This document shows, in pieces, positions 2,516-29,562 of a DNA stretch of 64,000 nt. Position numbers and translations under genes: made by a program. Origin of the DNA: Escherichia coli (GTDB taxonomy: Bacteria; Pseudomonadota; Gammaproteobacteria; Enterobacterales; Enterobacteriaceae); assembly GCF_013122565.1 (NCBI RefSeq), contig NZ_CP053258.1; one strand, given 5' to 3'. How positions within the stretch are numbered: the first letter of the stretch is position 1; every line of letters starts with the position of its first letter. Under the pieces are notes generated by a model that searched no databases, was not told the origin of the DNA, and was given only the letters and a program-made list of their open reading frames with translations.

Positions 2516-4735
2516 CTAAGCGGTAACGGTTTCCTCTTCCTCTTCGTCCATCATTTTCAAATAATGTTTTTCATCACCAGTCATACGAAAAATGGTTTTT
2601 AGTTGCTCCATATATTTCTCTGGAGATATATCTCCCATGTCTGTGATATTAACTGCATCTGAATGGGAACCTCTATTAATGTATCTATAAAATGCTCTAA
2701 AATCATTATTCTTATCATCGCTAGCAAGTTTATTTAACTCTGTCTGTAATGCATCCGTTCTATGAACAAATGCGAAGTAGTATTCCAGTATATTTCTCAT
2801 GATGTTAGGTATTATAACTTTATTTACCCTTCCATCCTTCGCATCTTTTAATACTTGCCATAGGGACTGGTATTCATTCTGAATGCTCTTTTTCTCTATT
2901 TCTGTAATTATGCTATATTCATTTTTTGTTACTCGTCCAAGATAATAATCACGCTTGAATGTTCTATCTTCTTTGCTTCTAGGAGCTAATTTGATAAGTT
3001 CATGAAAGAAATAAAGGTTATGTGTGAGTATTAATGTTTTCTTTACTGCTTTGTTATTGTTGATTATTTCATGGTGAATTATTGAAGCAATATCGTACAC
3101 ATAATTTTGAGAGAGGCTGGATATTGGATCATCAATAACGATAAATACATCTCGCATATCCGTATCATTCTTATCTGTCTTACCTTTACAGCATTCCAGA
3201 AAGTAGAGAAAGGTAATTAAAGTTTTTTCACCCTCGCTAAGAGATCTGTATACATCTTTATCTGTTGTGTTTTCAGAACGTGATATAATATATTTATCAT
3301 TGCTCTCAGTGTGTTTTTTTATGCTAAAACCATAAATTCCTAATAATTTTAGACGTTGATTTATAGAATCTATGGTTGCATCAATGTTAGATATTTGATC
3401 GCGTAGCTCTTTGATCTTTTTGCTATTGTTATCTCCTTGTTCTTTTATGGTATTTAATTCAAGTTGATATTGTTCATAAATGATTTTATAGTCATTCTCA
3501 TATTTTGAGAAAGCTTCAAACTCAGCGTTGCATAATTCTCTTATTGCTCCCCATATTTTGTAACGTATAGACTTTTCACTATCCTTAAATTGTTTGACTT
3601 TAATATTTATTTCTTTAATTCTATTGTTGTACTCTGCTATATTATCAACTACCTTTGCTTCAAGGTCGCTATTGGATTCCAAAATAATAGATATAGATGG
3701 GTTATTGATTTTATCTAACATCAATTTTAAGTTTTTGTTTGCTATTTCCTCTAGTAACGCTATATGAGATGATGTTATATCTTTTTCTTTTGAGGTGATT
3801 AATTCACAAGATGAAATCTCTTGTTTTATTTTTCTTAAATTATCTATGGTAGCGGATTCATAAGACGATCTGATAATGCGTATTTGGTCAACTTTCTTGG
3901 AGTAGCTATCATCAAAGATAGATTCAATTGCTTCTAAAAATTTGTCTTTAATAGTGTCTTCTTGGCAGAATGGGCAACATGTGCCATTTAAATATAATTC
4001 CTTCCCTTTTTTCACCCAGTCAAGGTTTTGAAGTTGTTTAATTGTTTCTGACAAATAGCTATTACTTGAGTCTATAATCGGAGTGGATAAAGATTCTTTA
4101 TCTTTTTCTGAAATGATATATTTTTCTAAAGGTGTAATTGATGCAGTGAATTTATCTTTGTTCTTTAAAAGAATACTATATTCTTGAGCAAGTGACTCGA
4201 TGTTAACGTCAGTGGTTTGAGGGGCTTTTTTAACTTGCTCATAAAATGATCTCTTGCTTCCTAACTGACCTTTCATCAAGTTCTTTAAGTCAGATGATCT
4301 AAAAGGTTCTGCTTTATTCCATATTAAATCAATATATTCATTTTCTTTATTGTTTTTATCTTTAATTAAACGCTCAATAACGTTTTTTTTATCTTTGTAT
4401 TTTGTAAGTAGGTCTTGTCTTATAGCTTCTTTTTCCAACAATTCTTTTTCAATGTCAGCATTTTCCTTACTTAAAGTGAATACTCCTTTTTGCTCTTTTG
4501 CATTATAAAAATTATCCTCAACAAACTTAGTATTATAAACCAATAGGCGAAAAGTATCTATGAAAGGACATTCGCATTCTTTGTAGTCCGTGTTATTTGG
4601 ATTATAGAAATAATTAGATATGGTTGATTTTCCACAACCGTTGTGACCATAAAGTATATTAATTTTTTTTGAGAGATTAAGAGTCGTGAAGCTATCTTTC
4701 TTATAGCTGGTTATATTCTTTAATTTAAGTTCCAT
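2516..4735 (-). CDS. Candidate antiphage/abortive-infection protein: split ABC/SMC-type ATPase with coiled-coil insert, CxxC motif and C-terminal HEPN-like domain (PrrC/RloC-like architecture, inferred)
   Basis: 739-aa ORF with ATG at 4733..4735 and GAGG-type RBS upstream. Walker A GHNGCGKST at residues 30-38; K/E-rich heptad-like region about 85-495 with CCPFC at 253-257; signature-like LSEGEK at 499-504; Walker B/D-loop VFIVIDDPISSLS at 530-542; H-loop LILTHN at 568-573; Rx6H (R684..H691) in the C-terminal ~150 aa. Much more AT-rich than the flanking phage genes. Sits at the P2 old/tin position. Confidence 0.8.
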   Translation of the reverse strand: MELKLKNITSYKKDSFTTLNLSKKINILYGHNGCGKSTISNYFYNPNNTDYKECECPFIDTFRLLVYNTKFVEDNFYNAKEQKGVFTLSKENADIEKELLEKEAIRQDLLTKYKDKKNVIERLIKDKNNKENEYIDLIWNKAEPFRSSDLKNLMKGQLGSKRSFYEQVKKAPQTTDVNIESLAQEYSILLKNKDKFTASITPLEKYIISEKDKESLSTPIIDSSNSYLSETIKQLQNLDWVKKGKELYLNGTCCPFCQEDTIKDKFLEAIESIFDDSYSKKVDQIRIIRSSYESATIDNLRKIKQEISSCELITSKEKDITSSHIALLEEIANKNLKLMLDKINNPSISIILESNSDLEAKVVDNIAEYNNRIKEINIKVKQFKDSEKSIRYKIWGAIRELCNAEFEAFSKYENDYKIIYEQYQLELNTIKEQGDNNSKKIKELRDQISNIDATIDSINQRLKLLGIYGFSIKKHTESNDKYIISRSENTTDKDVYRSLSEGEKTLITFLYFLECCKGKTDKNDTDMRDVFIVIDDPISSLSQNYVYDIASIIHHEIINNNKAVKKTLILTHNLYFFHELIKLAPRSKEDRTFKRDYYLGRVTKNEYSIITEIEKKSIQNEYQSLWQVLKDAKDGRVNKVIIPNIMRNILEYYFAFVHRTDALQTELNKLASDDKNNDFRAFYRYINRGSHSDAVNITDMGDISPEKYMEQLKTIFRMTGDEKHYLKMMDEEEEETVTA

Positions 4736-5065
4736 TTTAAAACCTCATCATTGCCAATGATATTGTATAAATATTTAAGCTGTTTAACATGAATTATTTT
4801 GCTAAACGATAAAGATCTACCTCAGAAGTTTACTTTGTTCAAGCAAAATCTTTTGTTCTAAGAGATATAAAAATTTTTATTAATAGTTTGATTTTTGTTC
4901 ATGGGATTTCCTTTTTTTATGTTTTTACAAAGTAATAACTATGCATGTATCAGGTGCATGGTTTTGCATGTGTCAAAGTTATGCGTCCTCATTGCTTTAC
5001 GTCACAGCTAGCGAGGATTCAACGTACTCATGCAACTGCATTAAAACCGCCCCATGAAGCGGGCG

Positions 5066-16393: not shown

Positions 16394-16997
16394 TTCGCGA
16401 CTGCTGCCGACCGGCTCATCACCGCTTGAAGTCGCCGCCGCAAAAGCCTGTGCGGAAATTGAAAAAACGCCGGTCAGTATTCGTGAGCTGTGGAACCCGG
16501 ATACCTGTCCGGCAAATCTGCTGCCGTGGCTGGCGTGGTCATTTTCGGTTGACCGCTGGGATGATAAGTGGCCGGAAGCGACAAAACGCGCTGTTATCCG
16601 CGATGCGTATTTCATTCACTGCCATAAGGGCACTATAGGCGCAATCCGGCGTGTGGTGGAGCCGCTCGGCTATCTGATTGAGGTAAGGGAGTGGTGGCAG
16701 CTCAACGAGGAGCCGGGGACGTTCCGTATCGTTGTTGGTGTGCTTGAGCAGGGTATTACCGAGGAAATGTATCAGGAGCTGGAGCGCCTCGTTGCTGATG
16801 CAAAACCGGCAAGCCGCCATCTGACGGGACTGGCTATCAGCTTAAGTACAACCGGCAACATTTTTGCCGGTGCGGGATGCTATCACGGCGACGCCCTGAC
16901 GGTTTATCCCTACACCCCGGAGGCCATTATTGTCGGAGGGGATTATTTCCCGGCCTCGGCCATTCATTTAATTGATAACCTGAGAGTAAACGCATGA
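16386..16997 (+). CDS. I: Baseplate protein
   Basis: 203-aa ORF in the gpI position (P2 gpI is 176 aa, so the true start may be internal). Confidence 0.75.
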   Translation: MSDSRLLPTGSSPLEVAAAKACAEIEKTPVSIRELWNPDTCPANLLPWLAWSFSVDRWDDKWPEATKRAVIRDAYFIHCHKGTIGAIRRVVEPLGYLIEVREWWQLNEEPGTFRIVVGVLEQGITEEMYQELERLVADAKPASRHLTGLAISLSTTGNIFAGAGCYHGDALTVYPYTPEAIIVGGDYFPASAIHLIDNLRVNA

Positions 16998-18331
16998 CAG
17001 TGAAATACTACGCCATTCTGACTAATCAGGGCGCAGCACGGCTGGCTAACGCGACGATGCTCGGCAGTAAGCTGAATCTGACGCAAATGGCCGTTGGTGA
17101 TGCGAATGGTGTCTTGCCGACACCAGACCCGGCACAGACAAAACTGATTAACCAGAAACGCATCGCGCCGCTGAATCTTCTGAGTGTTGACCCGAACAAC
17201 CAGAGCCAGATTATTGCGGAGCAAATCATCCCTGAGAACGAGGGCGGATTCTGGATCCGTGAGATTGGGCTTTATGATGATGAAGGCGTACTCATTGCGG
17301 TGGCGAACTGCCCGGAAACGTACAAACCGCAGTTGCAGGAAGGCAGTGGTCGTACCCAGACTATCCGCATGATTCTGGTTGTCACGAATACCGAAGCTAT
17401 CACGCTGAAAATCGACCCGTCGGTGGTACTGGCGACCCGTAAATACGTGGATGATGAAGTCCTGGAATTAAGGCTGTATGTGGATGACCAGATGAGCAAA
17501 CACATTGCCGCACAGGACCCTCATACCCAGTATGCACAGAAACATAATCCGACATTTACCGGAGAACCAAAAGCGCCGACGCCTGCCGCAGGAAATAACA
17601 CCACGCGGATTGCGACCACTGAGTTTGTTCAGGCCGCTATTACCGCTCTGATTAACGGCGCGCCAGCCACGCTGGACACACTGAAAGAAATTGCCGCAGC
17701 CATTAACAATGACCCGAAATTCAGTACCACCATTAACAATGCGCTGTCAGGTAAGCAGCCACTGGATGAGACGCTGACGCATTTGAGCGGAAAGGATGTT
17801 GCCGGTCTTCTCGCATACCTTGGTTTGGGAGAAGGTTCGGCATTACCCGTTGGTGTGCCTGTTCCGTGGCCTTCAGCCACACCGCCTACTGGCTGGCTGA
17901 AATGCAACGGTGCGGCTTTTTCTGCTGAAGAATACCCGGAACTGGCAAAGGTTTATCCGACAAATAAATTGCCTGATTTACGCGGTGAATTTATTCGTGG
18001 CTGGGATGACGGGCGTGGAGTGGATAGCGGTCGTACTTTATTAACGAATCAAGAGCATGCAGTAATTTCTCATAATCATGGAATACCTACAAAAGTGGGG
18101 TCAGTTACTAATATCCCGTATGGAATAGAACAGGTTATATCTGATGAAACCATTTTTTCATCAGCAAAAACAGTTGGTGTGGATTACTGGTCTAACAGTG
18201 AAAGAGTTTTTACTTATACAACTGGTGGAAGAAATGGTGCTGAATCAGTGAGTTCACCTGATGCCTCCTCTTTAATTAAAGAAACCAGACCACGGAACCT
18301 GGCATTTGCGTATATCGTGAGGGCTGCATAA
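16994..18331 (+). CDS. H: Tail fibre protein: constant N-terminal part plus currently expressed variable C-terminal part
   Basis: 445 aa in the gpH position. A gix-like crossover site lies inside the gene at 17808..17833, so residues after about 277 belong to the invertible segment. Confidence 0.85.
   Translation: MTVKYYAILTNQGAARLANATMLGSKLNLTQMAVGDANGVLPTPDPAQTKLINQKRIAPLNLLSVDPNNQSQIIAEQIIPENEGGFWIREIGLYDDEGVLIAVANCPETYKPQLQEGSGRTQTIRMILVVTNTEAITLKIDPSVVLATRKYVDDEVLELRLYVDDQMSKHIAAQDPHTQYAQKHNPTFTGEPKAPTPAAGNNTTRIATTEFVQAAITALINGAPATLDTLKEIAAAINNDPKFSTTINNALSGKQPLDETLTHLSGKDVAGLLAYLGLGEGSALPVGVPVPWPSATPPTGWLKCNGAAFSAEEYPELAKVYPTNKLPDLRGEFIRGWDDGRGVDSGRTLLTNQEHAVISHNHGIPTKVGSVTNIPYGIEQVISDETIFSSAKTVGVDYWSNSERVFTYTTGGRNGAESVSSPDASSLIKETRPRNLAFAYIVRAA
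17808..17833. other. gix/hix-like invertase crossover site (left), inside H
   Basis: TTCTCGCATACC TT GGTTTGGGAGAA: 12-2-12 layout with the same half-site style as hixL from memory, and an inverted match to the right site. Confidence 0.6.
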
Positions 18332-18933
18332 TGGATTACGCCGTATTAAATAACGAGTTTATCGCCACCCAGGCAGGAAATATTACTGTTTATAACTATG
18401 ATGGTGAAACGCGTGAATATATTTCTACATCAACTGAATATCTCGCTGTCGGCGTCGGTATTCCGGCATGTTCTTGTTTGGATGCACCAGGTACACATAA
18501 AGCTGGTTATGCAATCTGTCGCTCTGTAGATTTAAATTCATGGGAATATGTGCCAGACCATCGCGGTGAAATCGTCTATAGCACCGAAACAGGAGAATCG
18601 AAAGAAATCACAGCTCCGGGTGATTATCCTGAAAATACAACCACTATCGCCCCGTTAACGCCATACGATGAATGGAATGGTGAGAAATGGGTGACAGATA
18701 CTGAGGCACAGCATAGTGCCGCAGTAGACGCGGCAGAAGCACAGCGCCAGTCGCTGATTGATGCTGCAATGGCTTCCATCAGTCTGATTCAACTGAAATT
18801 ACGGGCCGGGCGGAAGCTGACGCAGCCAGAAAACACCCGACTTAACGCCGTGCTGGATTACATTGACGCGGTGACGGCAACAGATACCAGCACCGCACCG
18901 GATGTCATCTGGCCTGAACTGCCGGAGGCGTAG
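18331..18933 (+). CDS. G: Tail fibre assembly chaperone (expressed orientation)
   Basis: 200 aa, gpG position; C-terminal motif TSTAPDVIWPELPE typical of tail fibre assembly proteins. Confidence 0.8.
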   Translation: MDYAVLNNEFIATQAGNITVYNYDGETREYISTSTEYLAVGVGIPACSCLDAPGTHKAGYAICRSVDLNSWEYVPDHRGEIVYSTETGESKEITAPGDYPENTTTIAPLTPYDEWNGEKWVTDTEAQHSAAVDAAEAQRQSLIDAAMASISLIQLKLRAGRKLTQPENTRLNAVLDYIDAVTATDTSTAPDVIWPELPEA

Positions 18934-19345
18934 GCCATTCAATATCTGGAGCACTGGAGGAATCAACCAGTTCCAGTGCGTCCAGATAATCTAGCCATAA
19001 ATTATATTGCGCCAGTTCCTCACCTTTCAGACGACCAATCGCCGCTTTACCAGGCCATTGCTTACTGTTTATGTATTCGTTGACCTGATTAATCAATTGC
19101 TGCTTTTCCAATTCGGCTGCGGCAATTTGTTCCTCATGAGTTGGCGGTGGAATATCAATCCATGCAGGCATTCCGTCGATGACACCTCTGTATTTTCCTT
19201 CTGGTGCTTCCTTCATAAATTCGGCGGCAACAGTGTCGTCAATTTCGATTCCATCATCGGGCCATTCGCCGGATTCCTGATAAGCGATTTTAAGCTCCAC
19301 AGGGAAAAACGCATTTTTATCGGCACTGAAAATATATTTCTGCAT
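18905..19345 (-). CDS. Alternative tail fibre assembly chaperone (G'), silent in this orientation
   Basis: 146 aa, convergent with G and overlapping its 3' end; C-terminal motif SSAPDIEWPTPP; lies inside the invertible segment. Confidence 0.75.
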   Translation of the reverse strand: MQKYIFSADKNAFFPVELKIAYQESGEWPDDGIEIDDTVAAEFMKEAPEGKYRGVIDGMPAWIDIPPPTHEEQIAAAELEKQQLINQVNEYINSKQWPGKAAIGRLKGEELAQYNLWLDYLDALELVDSSSAPDIEWPTPPAVQAR

Positions 19346-19347
19346 TT

Positions 19348-19746
19348 CTACCGTCCTATCGAAATATAACTGAATCTGTATTGCTGTGAGATATCACTGG
19401 TTGCCACACGCCACGCTGAATTACTGATATGTTCAAAATTTACAGACAAAACCTGCGGGGCAGGAATCGACGGGTCTGACTGAACGGCATCAGACATAAC
19501 ACTGACTGAAACCATCGGCTGATTAGGGAATGGTATAGGGAAGTGTCCACTGATAAAGCGGGTCGTGTTTCCTGAAAAAGTGCCAAACTGAACAATATAT
19601 CCACCTGGTAGCCTGAACCATCCCGAACCAGAAGCGAATGCTCCCATATCCGGTATCTGATTATCTCCTGTGCCCACATCCCTTTTCGCCGCTTCTCCCA
19701 AACCAACGTTTATGAAAATGCAGAGATAACGGGCAACTGGCATCAT
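19348..19746 (-). CDS. Alternative tail fibre C-terminal cassette (H'), expressed only after inversion by fusion to the constant part of H
   Basis: The minus-strand frame encodes GLGEAAKRDVGTGDNQ..., which is in frame with the GLGE of H across the shared 14-bp crossover sequence; the functional part is about 19348..19706. Confidence 0.7.
   Translation of the reverse strand: MMPVARYLCIFINVGLGEAAKRDVGTGDNQIPDMGAFASGSGWFRLPGGYIVQFGTFSGNTTRFISGHFPIPFPNQPMVSVSVMSDAVQSDPSIPAPQVLSVNFEHISNSAWRVATSDISQQYRFSYISIGR
19693..19718. other. gix/hix-like invertase crossover site (right), about 50 bp upstream of the invertase gene
   Basis: TTCTCCCAAACC AA CGTTTATGAAAA; its reverse complement shares TTGGTTTGGGAGAA with the left site. 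The sites bound an invertible segment of about 1.9 kb (17820..19706). Confidence 0.6.
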
Positions 19747-19767
19747 CTCCGGTTTTTATTCAGGGGG

Positions 19768-20367
19768 ATGCTCATGCTTATTGGCTATGTACGCGTGTCA
19801 ACAAATGACCAGAACACGGAATTGCAGCGTAACGCGCTGGAGTGCGCAGGATGCGAGCGGATTTTTGAGGATAAAATCAGCGGCACGAAGTCCGACCGAC
19901 CGGGACTGAAAAAACTGCTCAGAACATTATCAGCAGGTGACACTCTGGTAGTCTGGAAGCTGGACCGGCTGGGGCGTAGTATGCGGCATCTGGTCATTCT
20001 GGTTGAGGAGCTGCGCGAACGCGGCGTTAATTTTCGCAGCCTGACAGATGCTATTGATACCAGCACGCCGATGGGGCGTTTTTTCTTTCATGTGATGGGT
20101 GCCCTGGCTGAAATGGAGCGAGAACTCATTGTCGAGCGGACACGCGCCGGACTGGAAGCGGCCAGAGCCAAAGGGCGTATTGGTGGCAGACGTCCGAAGC
20201 TCACCGCGAGTGAGTGGGAACAGGCAGGACGGTTGCTGGCTGCGGGTGAATCACGTCAACGCGTGGCGCTGATTTTTGATATTGGCCTGTCCACGCTCTA
20301 TAAAAAATTCCCCTCATCAGCGGCAAAGAATAAATTGTGTCATCCCTTAGCCAACCGGGACAAATAG
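19768..20367 (+). CDS. Serine DNA invertase (Hin/Gin/Cin/Pin family)
   Basis: 199 aa; N-terminal catalytic motif GYVRVSTNDQ with the active-site serine; C-terminal helix-turn-helix; immediately next to the invertible tail-fibre segment. Confidence 0.85.
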   Translation: MLMLIGYVRVSTNDQNTELQRNALECAGCERIFEDKISGTKSDRPGLKKLLRTLSAGDTLVVWKLDRLGRSMRHLVILVEELRERGVNFRSLTDAIDTSTPMGRFFFHVMGALAEMERELIVERTRAGLEAARAKGRIGGRRPKLTASEWEQAGRLLAAGESRQRVALIFDIGLSTLYKKFPSSAAKNKLCHPLANRDK

Positions 20368-20426
20368 CCTGACATCTCCGGCACAACTGAAAATATCACT
20401 CACCCATTAACCACGGAGTTAAACGG

Positions 20427-21617
20427 ATGAGTGACTATCATCACGGCGTGCAGGTGCTGGAGATTAACGACGGCACCCGCGTCATTTCCACCGTATCCAC
20501 TGCCATTGTTGGCATGGTCTGCACGGCCAGCGATGCGGATGCGGAAACCTTCCCCCTCAATAAACCGGTGCTGATTACCAATGTGCAGAGCGCAATTGCA
20601 AAGGCCGGTAAAAAAGGCACGCTGGCGGCATCGTTGCAGGCCATCGCCGACCAGTCAAAACCGGTCACCGTTGTCGTGCGTGTGGAAGATGGCACCGGTG
20701 ACGACGAGGAAACGAAACTCGCGCAGACCGTTTCCAATATCATCGGCACCACCGACGAAAACGGTCAGTACACCGGACTGAAAGCCCTGCTGGCGGCGGA
20801 GTCGGTAACCGGTGTTAAACCGCGCATTCTCGGTGTGCCGGGACTGGACACCAAAGAGGTGGCTGTTGCACTGGCATCAGTCTGTCAGAAGCTGCGCGCT
20901 TTCGGGTATATCAGCGCATGGGGCTGTAAAACCATTTCCGAGGTGAAAGCCTACCGCCAGAATTTCAGCCAGCGTGAGCTGATGGTCATCTGGCCGGATT
21001 TCCTCGCATGGGATACGGTCACCAGTACCACCGCCACCGCGTATGCCACCGCCCGTGCGCTGGGTCTGCGCGCTAAAATCGACCAGGAGCAGGGCTGGCA
21101 TAAAACGCTGTCCAACGTTGGGGTGAACGGTGTTACCGGCATCAGCGCCTCTGTATTCTGGGATTTGCAGGAGTCCGGCACCGATGCTGACCTGCTTAAC
21201 GAGTCAGGCGTCACAACGCTGATTCGCCGTGACGGTTTCCGCTTCTGGGGTAACCGTACCTGCTCTGATGACCCGCTGTTCCTCTTTGAAAACTACACCC
21301 GCACCGCGCAGGTGCTGGCCGACACGATGGCTGAGGCGCACATGTGGGCGGTGGACAAGCCCATCACCGCAACGCTGATTCGCGACATCGTTGACGGCAT
21401 CAATGCCAAATTCCGTGAGCTGAAAACAAACGGCTATATCGTGGATGCGACCTGCTGGTTCAGCGAAGAATCCAACGATGCGGAAACCCTCAAGGCCGGA
21501 AAACTGTATATCGACTACGACTATACCCCGGTGCCTCCTCTCGAAAACCTGACCCTGCGCCAGCGTATTACCGATAAATACCTGGCAAATCTGGTCACTT
21601 CGGTTAACAGCAATTAA
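20427..21617 (+). CDS. FI: Tail sheath protein
   Basis: 396 aa, same as P2 gpFI. Confidence 0.9.
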   Translation: MSDYHHGVQVLEINDGTRVISTVSTAIVGMVCTASDADAETFPLNKPVLITNVQSAIAKAGKKGTLAASLQAIADQSKPVTVVVRVEDGTGDDEETKLAQTVSNIIGTTDENGQYTGLKALLAAESVTGVKPRILGVPGLDTKEVAVALASVCQKLRAFGYISAWGCKTISEVKAYRQNFSQRELMVIWPDFLAWDTVTSTTATAYATARALGLRAKIDQEQGWHKTLSNVGVNGVTGISASVFWDLQESGTDADLLNESGVTTLIRRDGFRFWGNRTCSDDPLFLFENYTRTAQVLADTMAEAHMWAVDKPITATLIRDIVDGINAKFRELKTNGYIVDATCWFSEESNDAETLKAGKLYIDYDYTPVPPLENLTLRQRITDKYLANLVTSVNSN

Positions 21618-28665: not shown

Positions 28666-28767
28666 AATTCTCTCGTTCTGATGACAGGTCAGATCCGCTT
28701 CACCTGATGAAGCGGCCAGGGGAGTGCCCCCACTTTAAGGGCGGGCATTGTAGCGCAATCGGCGGGT

Positions 28768-29064
28768 TTAGCTCCAGTGTAAATGTCTGGTGGCGTCCTG
28801 GTTTTGGTTAAGGATACGAATGACGATAATTTCCCCTGGTGATTGCAGGAAATAAATTACGTGGCGTTCAAAAGGAAGAACAAAAATACCTTCGCCTAAT
28901 TCAGGTCTGGGCGTACCTATATTATTGTTACTCAGAATCTGGAGAACGTCTGAAAGATGTTCCACATATCTGTCGGCTTGTGGTTCGCCGAAATGGTGAT
29001 AACTGTAATACCAGATGCCTTCTAAATCCTCATTGGCTTTTGGCATGAGTTTAATAATACGCAC
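28768..29064 (-). CDS. ParE/RelE-family type II toxin
   Basis: 98 aa; pattern ...GEGIFVLPFERHVIYFLQSPGEIIVIRILNQNQD typical of ParE toxins; starts one base after the antitoxin stop. Confidence 0.7.
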   Translation of the reverse strand: MRIIKLMPKANEDLEGIWYYSYHHFGEPQADRYVEHLSDVLQILSNNNIGTPRPELGEGIFVLPFERHVIYFLQSPGEIIVIRILNQNQDATRHLHWS

Positions 29065-29065
29065 A

Positions 29066-29317
29066 TTATTTCCTTATCCCTGCTTTCACCTTCCGTAAAA
29101 ACGCGTCCTTTTCCCACGGCTGAGCTTCACCACTACTCAACCCTTCTGCAAGCATGTCACGTAATGCTTGCAGGCGAGACTCTGCTTGCTTTTCTCGAAG
29201 TAAGCGCAGTGACTCACGGATCACTTCGCTTTGGGTGCGATAGTCGCCGGATTCAATTAAGGACTCGATAAATTCACGCAACTCATCGCCGAGATCAACC
29301 GTCATCGTTCTGGCCAT
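29066..29317 (-). CDS. ParD-like ribbon-helix-helix antitoxin
   Basis: Start chosen at MARTMTVDLGDELREFIESL (83 aa); small acidic RHH-like protein immediately upstream of the toxin; the track ORF extends to 29413. Confidence 0.65.
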   Translation of the reverse strand: MARTMTVDLGDELREFIESLIESGDYRTQSEVIRESLRLLREKQAESRLQALRDMLAEGLSSGEAQPWEKDAFLRKVKAGIRK

Positions 29318-29562
29318 TTTACGTCCGCCTGTAAGTAAAAATCTTACATCAGTGTATTTCATAAAACGCATAGCGTCACGAAAGTATTGGAAGATATTTT
29401 GGCATATGAACATGTTCAGGAGGGGATGGTAAACAAAGAAAGCACAACGAGTGCTCGTCAGTGCCCACTATTTTAATGGCGGAGGTTAATCTTAATTATC
29501 AATAACTAAGCGTTATTTTGATATAAAGCCGGACGCCAACAAACCCACGCCCGGCATCGTAA

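Follow-up and report, generated by a model that had tools for sequence, protein, structure and literature searches.

A tail-fibre gene of a P2-like prophage in Escherichia coli is followed by two open reading frames (ORFs) that run against it. The question raised by this locus is whether they encode a stored alternative fibre tip with its own chaperone and, if so, how such a backward pair of genes could come to be expressed. The whole stretch of DNA that was analysed, hereafter the window, measures 64 kb. In the first-pass annotation, the two minus-strand ORFs were described as a silent cassette, H' and G', converging on the chaperone gene G. Both were found in the ORF list at exactly the coordinates proposed, 18905..19345 (146 aa) and 19348..19746 (132 aa), and the convergence on G was confirmed by the same list, the 3' ends of G and G' overlapping by 29 bp (18905-18933). 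The proposed extent of H' was correct for 19348-19704 but not for the last 42 nt (19705-19746), which contain the ATG of the 132-aa ORF, lie beyond the crossover point and correspond to the outer half-site and the spacer that precedes the invertase gene. As a whole, the locus very probably serves the prophage as a host-range switch of its tail-fibre operon, with two states and driven by an invertase (Table 1).

Table 1. Coordinates of the features of the tail-fibre locus in the window.
Feature	Position	Strand	Description
H, whole ORF	16994-18331	+	445 aa
H constant N-terminal part, aa 1-276	16994..17821	+	Outside the segment, common to both fibre versions
Left crossover site	17808..17833		TTCTCGCATACC-TT-GGTTTGGGAGAA, 12-2-12, core TT; within H, encodes ...LAYLGLGE
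Hv, current variable tip	17822..18331	+	169 aa; collar domain and variable insert; end ...RPRNLAFAYIVRAA
G, chaperone for expressed tip	18331..18933	+	200 aa
G', stored chaperone for alternative tip	18905..19345	-	146 aa
H', stored alternative tip	19348..19704	-	118 aa, GLGE to stop
Annotated H' ORF	19348..19746	-	132 aa
Start of the 132-aa ORF, leader MMPVARYLCIFINV...	19705..19746	-	Outside the segment, absent from the fused fibre
Right crossover site	19693..19718		TTCTCCCAAACC-AA-CGTTTATGAAAA, core AA on the + strand; inverted with respect to the left site
Serine DNA invertase	19774..20367	+	197 aa, starts MLIGYVRVSTNDQ; outside the segment, reads away from it
Candidate Fis-dependent recombinational enhancer	19867..19931		Within the invertase coding region; putative

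The window matches, at 100% identity, the chromosome of E. coli isolate 23S01245-7 (NZ_OZ197100.1, reverse strand). According to the RefSeq annotation, approximately positions 1-27,000 belong to the late-gene side of a P2-like prophage that is integrated next to yegQ, and in which replication gene A, portal, capsid, lysis, baseplate V-W-J-I, fibre H, sheath FI, tube FII, tape measure, D and ogr genes can be recognized. The remainder is ordinary chromosome, with bae and mdt at one end and the colanic acid genes at the other. The annotated order V-W-J-I-H-G-(insert)-FI-FII-E-T-U-D-ogr is the one expected around a P2-like (Peduoviridae) H gene, and the P2 late region surrounding the locus is complete from portal to D and ogr. 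All five genes of the locus are full length, without stops or frameshifts, in the ORF list and upon in-silico inversion.

The invertible segment is 1,885 bp long and is bounded by two inverted 26-bp crossover sites (17808-17833 and 19693-19718). In each of them, a 2-bp core separates two half-sites of 12 bp, and the cores match once the sites are aligned. Two sites of 26 bp, in inverted orientation and with matching cores, are what is known of crossover sites of the Gin/Hin/Cin/Pin type. The longest inverted repeat of the region (27 nt) pairs 17808-17834 with 19692-19718, and a degenerate pattern covering both sites gave 2 matches in the 64 kb for 0.00 expected from 100 shuffles. At its right end, the e14 P segment carries the same 26 bp as the right site. 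The inner half-sites match the e14 P-segment repeats published by Kirigo et al. (PMC12529663), with no difference between that of the left site and TTGGTTTGGGAGAAGG. The Mu gix site, TTATCCAAAACC-TC-GGTTTACAGGAA as read from the Mu genome, has the 12-2-12 layout of the window sites. A multi-site shufflon of the p15B Min or three-repeat EPEC type was considered and rejected, as a search of the 64 kb that allowed up to 3 mismatches gave no more than two sites and the ORF list contains only two tip cassettes.

The recombinase encoded next to the segment belongs, judging from its sequence, to the DNA-invertase subfamily of small serine recombinases and is of the Gin/Pin type. It contains Pfam Resolvase (E=8e-53) and HTH_7 (E=1e-12) domains, matches the Gin structure 3uj3 over residues 1-184 by sequence (E=6e-95) and has 87% identity with e14 PinE and, over 184 aa, 79% with Mu Gin. 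From its first residue onwards, the protein is colinear with Gin (residues 1-184) and PinE (residues 1-181), and it shares with them the conserved stretch YVRVSTNDQ at the N-terminus. The ORF can start at 19768 or 19774, and RefSeq uses the second ATG (19774), with which the protein begins in the family-typical MLIGYVRVSTNDQ. No sigma-70-like promoter was found for the invertase by a simple scan. Known invertases need a Fis-bound enhancer in cis (PMC3798978). Fis-like 15-mers of the form G-N13-C with A/T-rich centres are present at +94, +131 and +144 of the invertase gene, this consensus being loose and the region coding; the one at +94 has positional counterparts in gin and pinE, a conservation that is inseparable from that of the coding sequence. 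By analogy with Gin and Hin, host Fis probably assists the inversion through an enhancer located in the 5' part of the invertase gene, and the switch would depend on it.

The left crossover site divides H into a constant part, which carries the Pfam Phage_tail_fib N-terminal domain (E=1.3e-62), and the variable tip Hv. In the expressed position, Hv is of the T4 gp37/gp12 collar type. A Pfam Collar domain (E=1.5e-14) covers residues 287-334 of H, and Hv matches by sequence the T4 gp37 tip 2xgf (E=9e-15), in the collar domain and at the extreme C-terminus, as well as the phiTE short tail fibre 9cuy (E=7e-17). The C-terminal end RPRNLAFAYIVRAA aligns with KNIAFNYIVRLA of T4 gp37. Finally, Hv is 57% identical to e14 StfE.

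The stored tip is of another kind. Residues 45-132 of the 132-aa ORF match Pfam Gp53-like_C (PF21882) with 37.3 bits for a cut-off of 24.9 (E=4e-9). Relatives of H' comprised 448 representatives at E<=0.001, of which 21 were aligned with the query together with the C-terminus of e14 StfP, making 22 relatives in all, and the AlphaFold2 model obtained from this alignment had a mean pLDDT of 81.5. In a Foldseek search, the C-terminal receptor-binding domains of R1/R2 pyocin fibres were the sole significant PDB matches of the model (6cl6, 6cl5, 6ct8 and 6cxb, E=5e-6 to 4e-5, probability 1.00, TMq 0.54-0.61). A direct sequence search of solved structures with H' gave a weak match only (4mtm, E=0.19), and the fold assignment is based on Pfam and on the model. 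From these, H' is predicted to be a gp53-like lectin-fold receptor-binding "foot" that resembles the one of R-type pyocins: the PF21882 score, the beta-sandwich fold and the position at the C-terminus of a fibre all agree with this domain. Elsewhere, the H' tip terminates fibres of 367, 653 and 846 aa.

Searching both tips against known receptor-binding domains, as had been advised in the first-pass annotation, thus led to the gp37 and phiTE fibres for Hv and to the R1/R2 pyocin fibres for the H' model. The two tips belong to different Pfam families and fold classes, far from the near-identity that would have spoken against an alternative tip. The earlier statement that H' bears no obvious similarity to the expressed C-terminus of H was corroborated, since BLASTP detected none between Hv and H' (E=7.1). 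Similarity of H' to Mu S/S' was also looked for and none was found. Because it resembles neither the expressed tip nor Mu S/S', the idea that H' is a diverged duplicate was discarded. As the tip folds are unrelated, particles of the two orientations may reasonably be expected to bind different surface receptors.

Each tip is followed by a predicted chaperone. G contains a Pfam Caudo_TAP domain (E=9e-32) and is 89.5% identical to e14 TfaE. G', which starts 2 nt past the H' stop, matches the same family (PF02413, to which P2 G, Mu U and lambda Tfa belong) over residues 9-141 with 118.7 bits for a cut-off of 22.1 (E=2.5e-34), a membership from which it is predicted to be a chaperone, and is 56% identical to e14 TfaP. 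It had been proposed that G and G' share only a C-terminal motif. The motif, S-x-APD-x-x-WP, is indeed present in both (STAPDVIWP in G and SSAPDIEWP in G'), but the resemblance extends to 34% identity across the C-terminal 80 aa (E=1e-11), and the N-terminal parts differ. In a structural study of the Mu fibre chaperone, the family is said to combine a variable, fibre-specific N-terminal domain with a conserved C-terminal domain, and the split between G and G' fits this pattern.

Direct evidence for the switch comes from other E. coli genomes. Inversion of 17821-19705 in silico, at the crossover cores, produced an uninterrupted in-frame H::H' gene of 394 aa that ends in ...FSYISIGR, with neither stop nor frameshift at the fusion; G' begins 2 nt past the H::H' stop and is preceded by TAGGACGGTAGAA. 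Among 5,426 complete E. coli genomes, where a locus was counted if at least 80% of it was covered, 16 had the orientation of the window and 22 the flipped one. Strain BS74R-D represents the former and strain E-93 the latter, with identical flanking proteins. The E-93 locus equals the BS74R-D locus inverted in silico, with 0 mismatches in 5,374 bp, and when the two are compared uninverted, the differences are confined to the equivalent of window positions 17835-19691. Moreover, the fused gene of E-93 is annotated as a 1185-nt tail protein, which corresponds exactly to the 394 aa predicted. The comparison gives direct evidence of site-specific inversion at the predicted sites, observed in a 96%-identical relative rather than in the window isolate. 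The closest relative with the Hv tip of the window, bR_120_Kylling, was also examined as a flipped example and set aside, as its locus proved to be joined to a second prophage rather than simply flipped.

Expression of the stored pair was addressed by a promoter scan of 16500-20600, in which 4 promoter-like sites were detected for 5.1 +/- 2.1 in shuffles. None of them was on the minus strand upstream of H', which upholds the earlier remark that H' and G' lack a promoter context of their own. The two minus-strand matches, at 19390-19363 (18 nt before the G' start) and 19030-19001, were examined as a promoter for the pair and taken as chance, the total being below the shuffle mean. The P2 late-promoter dyad TGT-N12-ACA was searched for upstream of FI and in the 3' end of the invertase gene, with no match near the locus. 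In P2, V-W-J-I-H-G form a single late operon, and H' and G' should therefore be read only after inversion.

A mechanism can be proposed along these lines. The constant part of H (aa 1-276), separated from its tip by the 26-bp crossover site, would attach to the baseplate, and the segment contains two convergent cassettes, Hv with G in the expressed position and H' with G' stored backwards. The Gin/Pin-type invertase would pair the inverted sites, cut at the central TT/AA and rotate the segment by 180 degrees. After such a flip, the late operon transcript would encode the constant part of H fused to H' (394 aa) and then G', which would act as the cognate assembly chaperone of the H' tip. The receptors of the two particle types are probably LPS or other saccharides.

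Another reading concerns the 132-aa ORF itself. Instead of being silent, it would use its own conserved ATG to make a free lectin of 132 aa, in which an 18-aa leader precedes the gp53-like tip. This protein, perhaps produced along with G', would block the adsorption of other phages by coating a surface receptor of the lysogen. Such a protein has been described in e14, where StfE2 consists of a leader encoded beside pinE (17 aa) joined to a gp53-like tip (Kirigo et al. 2025, PMC12529663) and where plasmid-produced StfE2 cut T2 adsorption to 3% at 8 min (PMC12529663). The 132-aa ORF is built in the same way, with the leader MMPVARYLCIFINVGLGE for MPFACYFFIFINVGLGE in e14 and Gp53-like_C at residues 45-132. 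Conservation of its ATG-ATG and spacer extends to e14 and to Klebsiella phage Kp4845-2, and PGAP calls the ORF a CDS. On the contrary, no promoter-like site lies upstream of the ORF on the minus strand, and the GGAG abuts the ATG, a poor Shine-Dalgarno spacing. The conservation of the spacer is explained equally well by regulatory sequence of the invertase, and a lone monomeric tip deprived of a trimerising shaft may not fold. The adsorption and survival effects cited for StfE2 were measured with plasmid-produced protein, and the T2 result is not transferable to H', because the H' and e14 StfP tips share only about 26% identity. A free lectin of this sort is therefore improbable at this locus; if it were made, the flip would switch the host range of the virion and a prophage-encoded adsorption block together.

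That the cassette is a decaying relic, with a switch that is dead in the window prophage and H'/G' never expressed, is hardly credible: e14, the closest known relative, is a defective prophage whose stfE is annotated as a pseudogene, but here the five genes are intact in length and reading frame as is the invertase, the site cores match, the P2 late region is whole, H'-G' share 98-99% DNA identity with cassettes in sequenced Peduoviridae genomes and near relatives occur in both orientations.

The two-state switch has well-known counterparts, and the locus is an already known kind of system, real but ordinary. With a constant N-terminus outside the segment, convergent pairs of tip and chaperone genes and fusions in frame, it has the organization of Mu G, P1 C and e14 P-type cassettes. 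The e14 P segment (stfP tfaP / tfaE stfE / pinE) is identical to the window locus in gene order and orientations and also shows the 29-bp overlap of the chaperone genes. Its cassette pair is likewise made of a collar-type tip and a gp53-like tip; the tips are considered to be of the same types since the StfP C-terminus aligns into the H' family (about 26% identity). Nevertheless, several differences separate the two elements. The window carries a complete P2-like myovirus prophage and e14 is a defective lambdoid one, its fibre has a P2 H-type N-terminus (Phage_tail_fib) as constant part instead of StfP, and the segment is 1,885 bp long instead of 1,797 bp. The collar tip occupies the expressed position here, which differs from the e14 orientation, and the H' tip is merely about 26% identical to that of StfP.

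The Mu G segment (S U / U' S' / gin) has the same layout, the invertase gene being likewise placed beyond the segment and directed away from it. Mu gix and the window sites have in common the conserved AAACC-NN-GGTTT, and the chaperones are Caudo_TAP proteins in both, the C-terminal part of Mu U' being matched by G' at 32% identity. On the other hand, Mu S and S' have no detectable similarity to the window tips, the segment measures 1.9 kb here for about 3 kb in Mu, and the core dinucleotide is TT/AA here and TC/GA in Mu. The P1 C segment with Cin is analogous to the Mu G segment. As for the stored tip, the predicted C-terminal fold of H' matches the receptor-binding domain of R-type pyocin fibres (6cl5, 6cl6, 6ct8, 6cxb) and of AP22 gp53 (4mtm), at a sequence identity of 20-24% at which sugar specificity is not transferable. 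R-pyocins are P2-type tails; their fibres, unlike H', are not known to be under inversion control.

Within P2-like phages, an annotated DNA invertase is found in many sequenced genomes at the position equivalent to that in the window. It lies likewise between G and FI in the Escherichia phages pro483 and 500465-2, in MET_P1_103_31 of Salmonella and in Kp4845-2 of Klebsiella. Inversion-based phase variation has been demonstrated in two P2-like prophages of EPEC (Goldberg et al., PMC4272514). By their published description, the loci of the EPEC E2348/69 prophages are counterparts of the window locus, and one EPEC prophage has three repeats and four variants, for two sites in the window.

The cassettes also differ from their surroundings in composition and history. 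The G+C content is 39-49% inside the segment for 56-57% in the flanking late genes. When the locus was compared with Klebsiella phage Kp4845-2, DNA identity reached 99.4% for H' and 98.4% for G', and was 76% for the constant part of H and 79% for the invertase gene. H'-G' are also 97-99% identical in several of the P2-like prophages and phages named above. The near-identity of H' with the Klebsiella phage showed what appears to be a recent cassette transfer. The dN/dS ratio for this pair was uninformative because of too few differences (2 in 357 nt). The window differs from its closest E. coli relatives chiefly in the distal Hv tip, 210 of the 350 mismatches being located in 18000-18399, and the distal 100 aa of Hv (18030-18331) represent a rarer variant, found in 47 of the 5,426 E. 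coli genomes; H'-G' were found in 203 of them. These patterns of G+C content, identity and frequency point to exchangeable cassettes, as is typical of the modular exchange of fibre tips.

The locus represents the classic hedging of host range by a phage through the flip of its tail fibre, first described for Mu, P1 and e14. The automatically annotated 132-aa "gp53-like domain-containing protein" should accordingly be regarded as a fragment of a switchable fibre gene and not as an independent gene, and any prediction of host range for the window prophage must take in two tips. Crossover sites of this kind can also recombine with those of other prophages, thereby rearranging chromosomes or confusing assemblies. 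Finally, a gp37-like collar tip and an R-pyocin-like foot carried by the same shaft would make a convenient natural test bed for receptor mapping.

The distal part of the fibre tip expressed in the window is a rare variant. Most of the differences from the nearest relatives fall in this part (210 of 350 mismatches lie in 18000-18399), while the remaining locus is 96-99% identical. This distal tip variant was present in only 47 of 5,426 complete Escherichia coli genomes. It looks like a receptor-binding insert that was recently swapped inside a gp37-like collar frame.

The closest relative of this tip was found in E. coli bR_120_Kylling. Its gene order reads V-W-J-I-H::H'-G', followed on the opposite strand by G and Hv and then by I-J-W-V of a second prophage. 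Hv is joined there to a different fibre constant part of 519 aa, and no invertase gene adjoins the locus. This arrangement looks like the product of a large inversion in the chromosome, with crossover sites in two prophages as its end points, or like an assembly artefact.

Features of the window and of the related locus in bR_120_Kylling
Feature	Record	Coordinates	Strand	Description
Distal part of expressed Hv tip	Window	18030-18331		G+C 39%
Annotated ORF of stored tip H'	Window	19348-19746		RefSeq ACNUEE_RS19720; automatically annotated as a CDS in its own right (132 aa, "gp53-like domain-containing protein")
AAA-family ATPase gene	Window	2519-4738	-	739 aa; between replication gene A and portal gene
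ParD/ParE toxin-antitoxin pair	Window	about 28766-29361 (record 4066898-4067493)		Just outside prophage, between yegP and yegQ
Related fibre locus	E. coli bR_120_Kylling, NZ_CP182374.1	3001-8716		Closest relative of the window's Hv tip

The stand-alone call of the stored tip is repeated in hundreds of database entries (131-132 aa); in ACNUEE_RS19720, the initial 14 codons fall beyond the invertible segment. At the centre of this segment, the 3' ends of G and G', which lie on opposite strands, overlap by 29 bp (18905-18933). The same 29-bp overlap is shared by tfaP and tfaE of the cryptic prophage e14, and the segment centre is therefore conserved between both elements.

Elsewhere in the prophage, the AAA-family ATPase gene holds the position that is occupied in P2 by tin/old. 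A search with its product hit PDC-S06, a candidate defence family of PADLOC (E=4e-253), and gave a weaker, PrrC-like match at the C-terminus; the gene is likely anti-phage cargo. In the toxin-antitoxin pair next to the prophage, the antitoxin gene parD is annotated as frameshifted and the toxin gene parE is intact.

Related loci were also observed in the same and in other strains. In NZ_OZ197100.1, the chromosome of isolate 23S01245-7 in which the window is matched at 100% identity, both the Hv distal tip and H'-G' have a second match outside the window (two places in the record each), and a search with the whole locus matched three places. In the assembly of E. coli MS 198-1, a related locus was found flipped in the chromosome (NZ_CP146687.1), and another record of 66.8 kb (NZ_CP146689.1) has it in the unflipped state; the match statistics are identical for the two copies (95.7%, 4266 bits). 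This suggests that both orientations, or a phage genome in free form, were present in the culture as sequenced. As for the window's own strain, a second prophage probably carries a related invertible segment, which could cross-react with the window's invertase.
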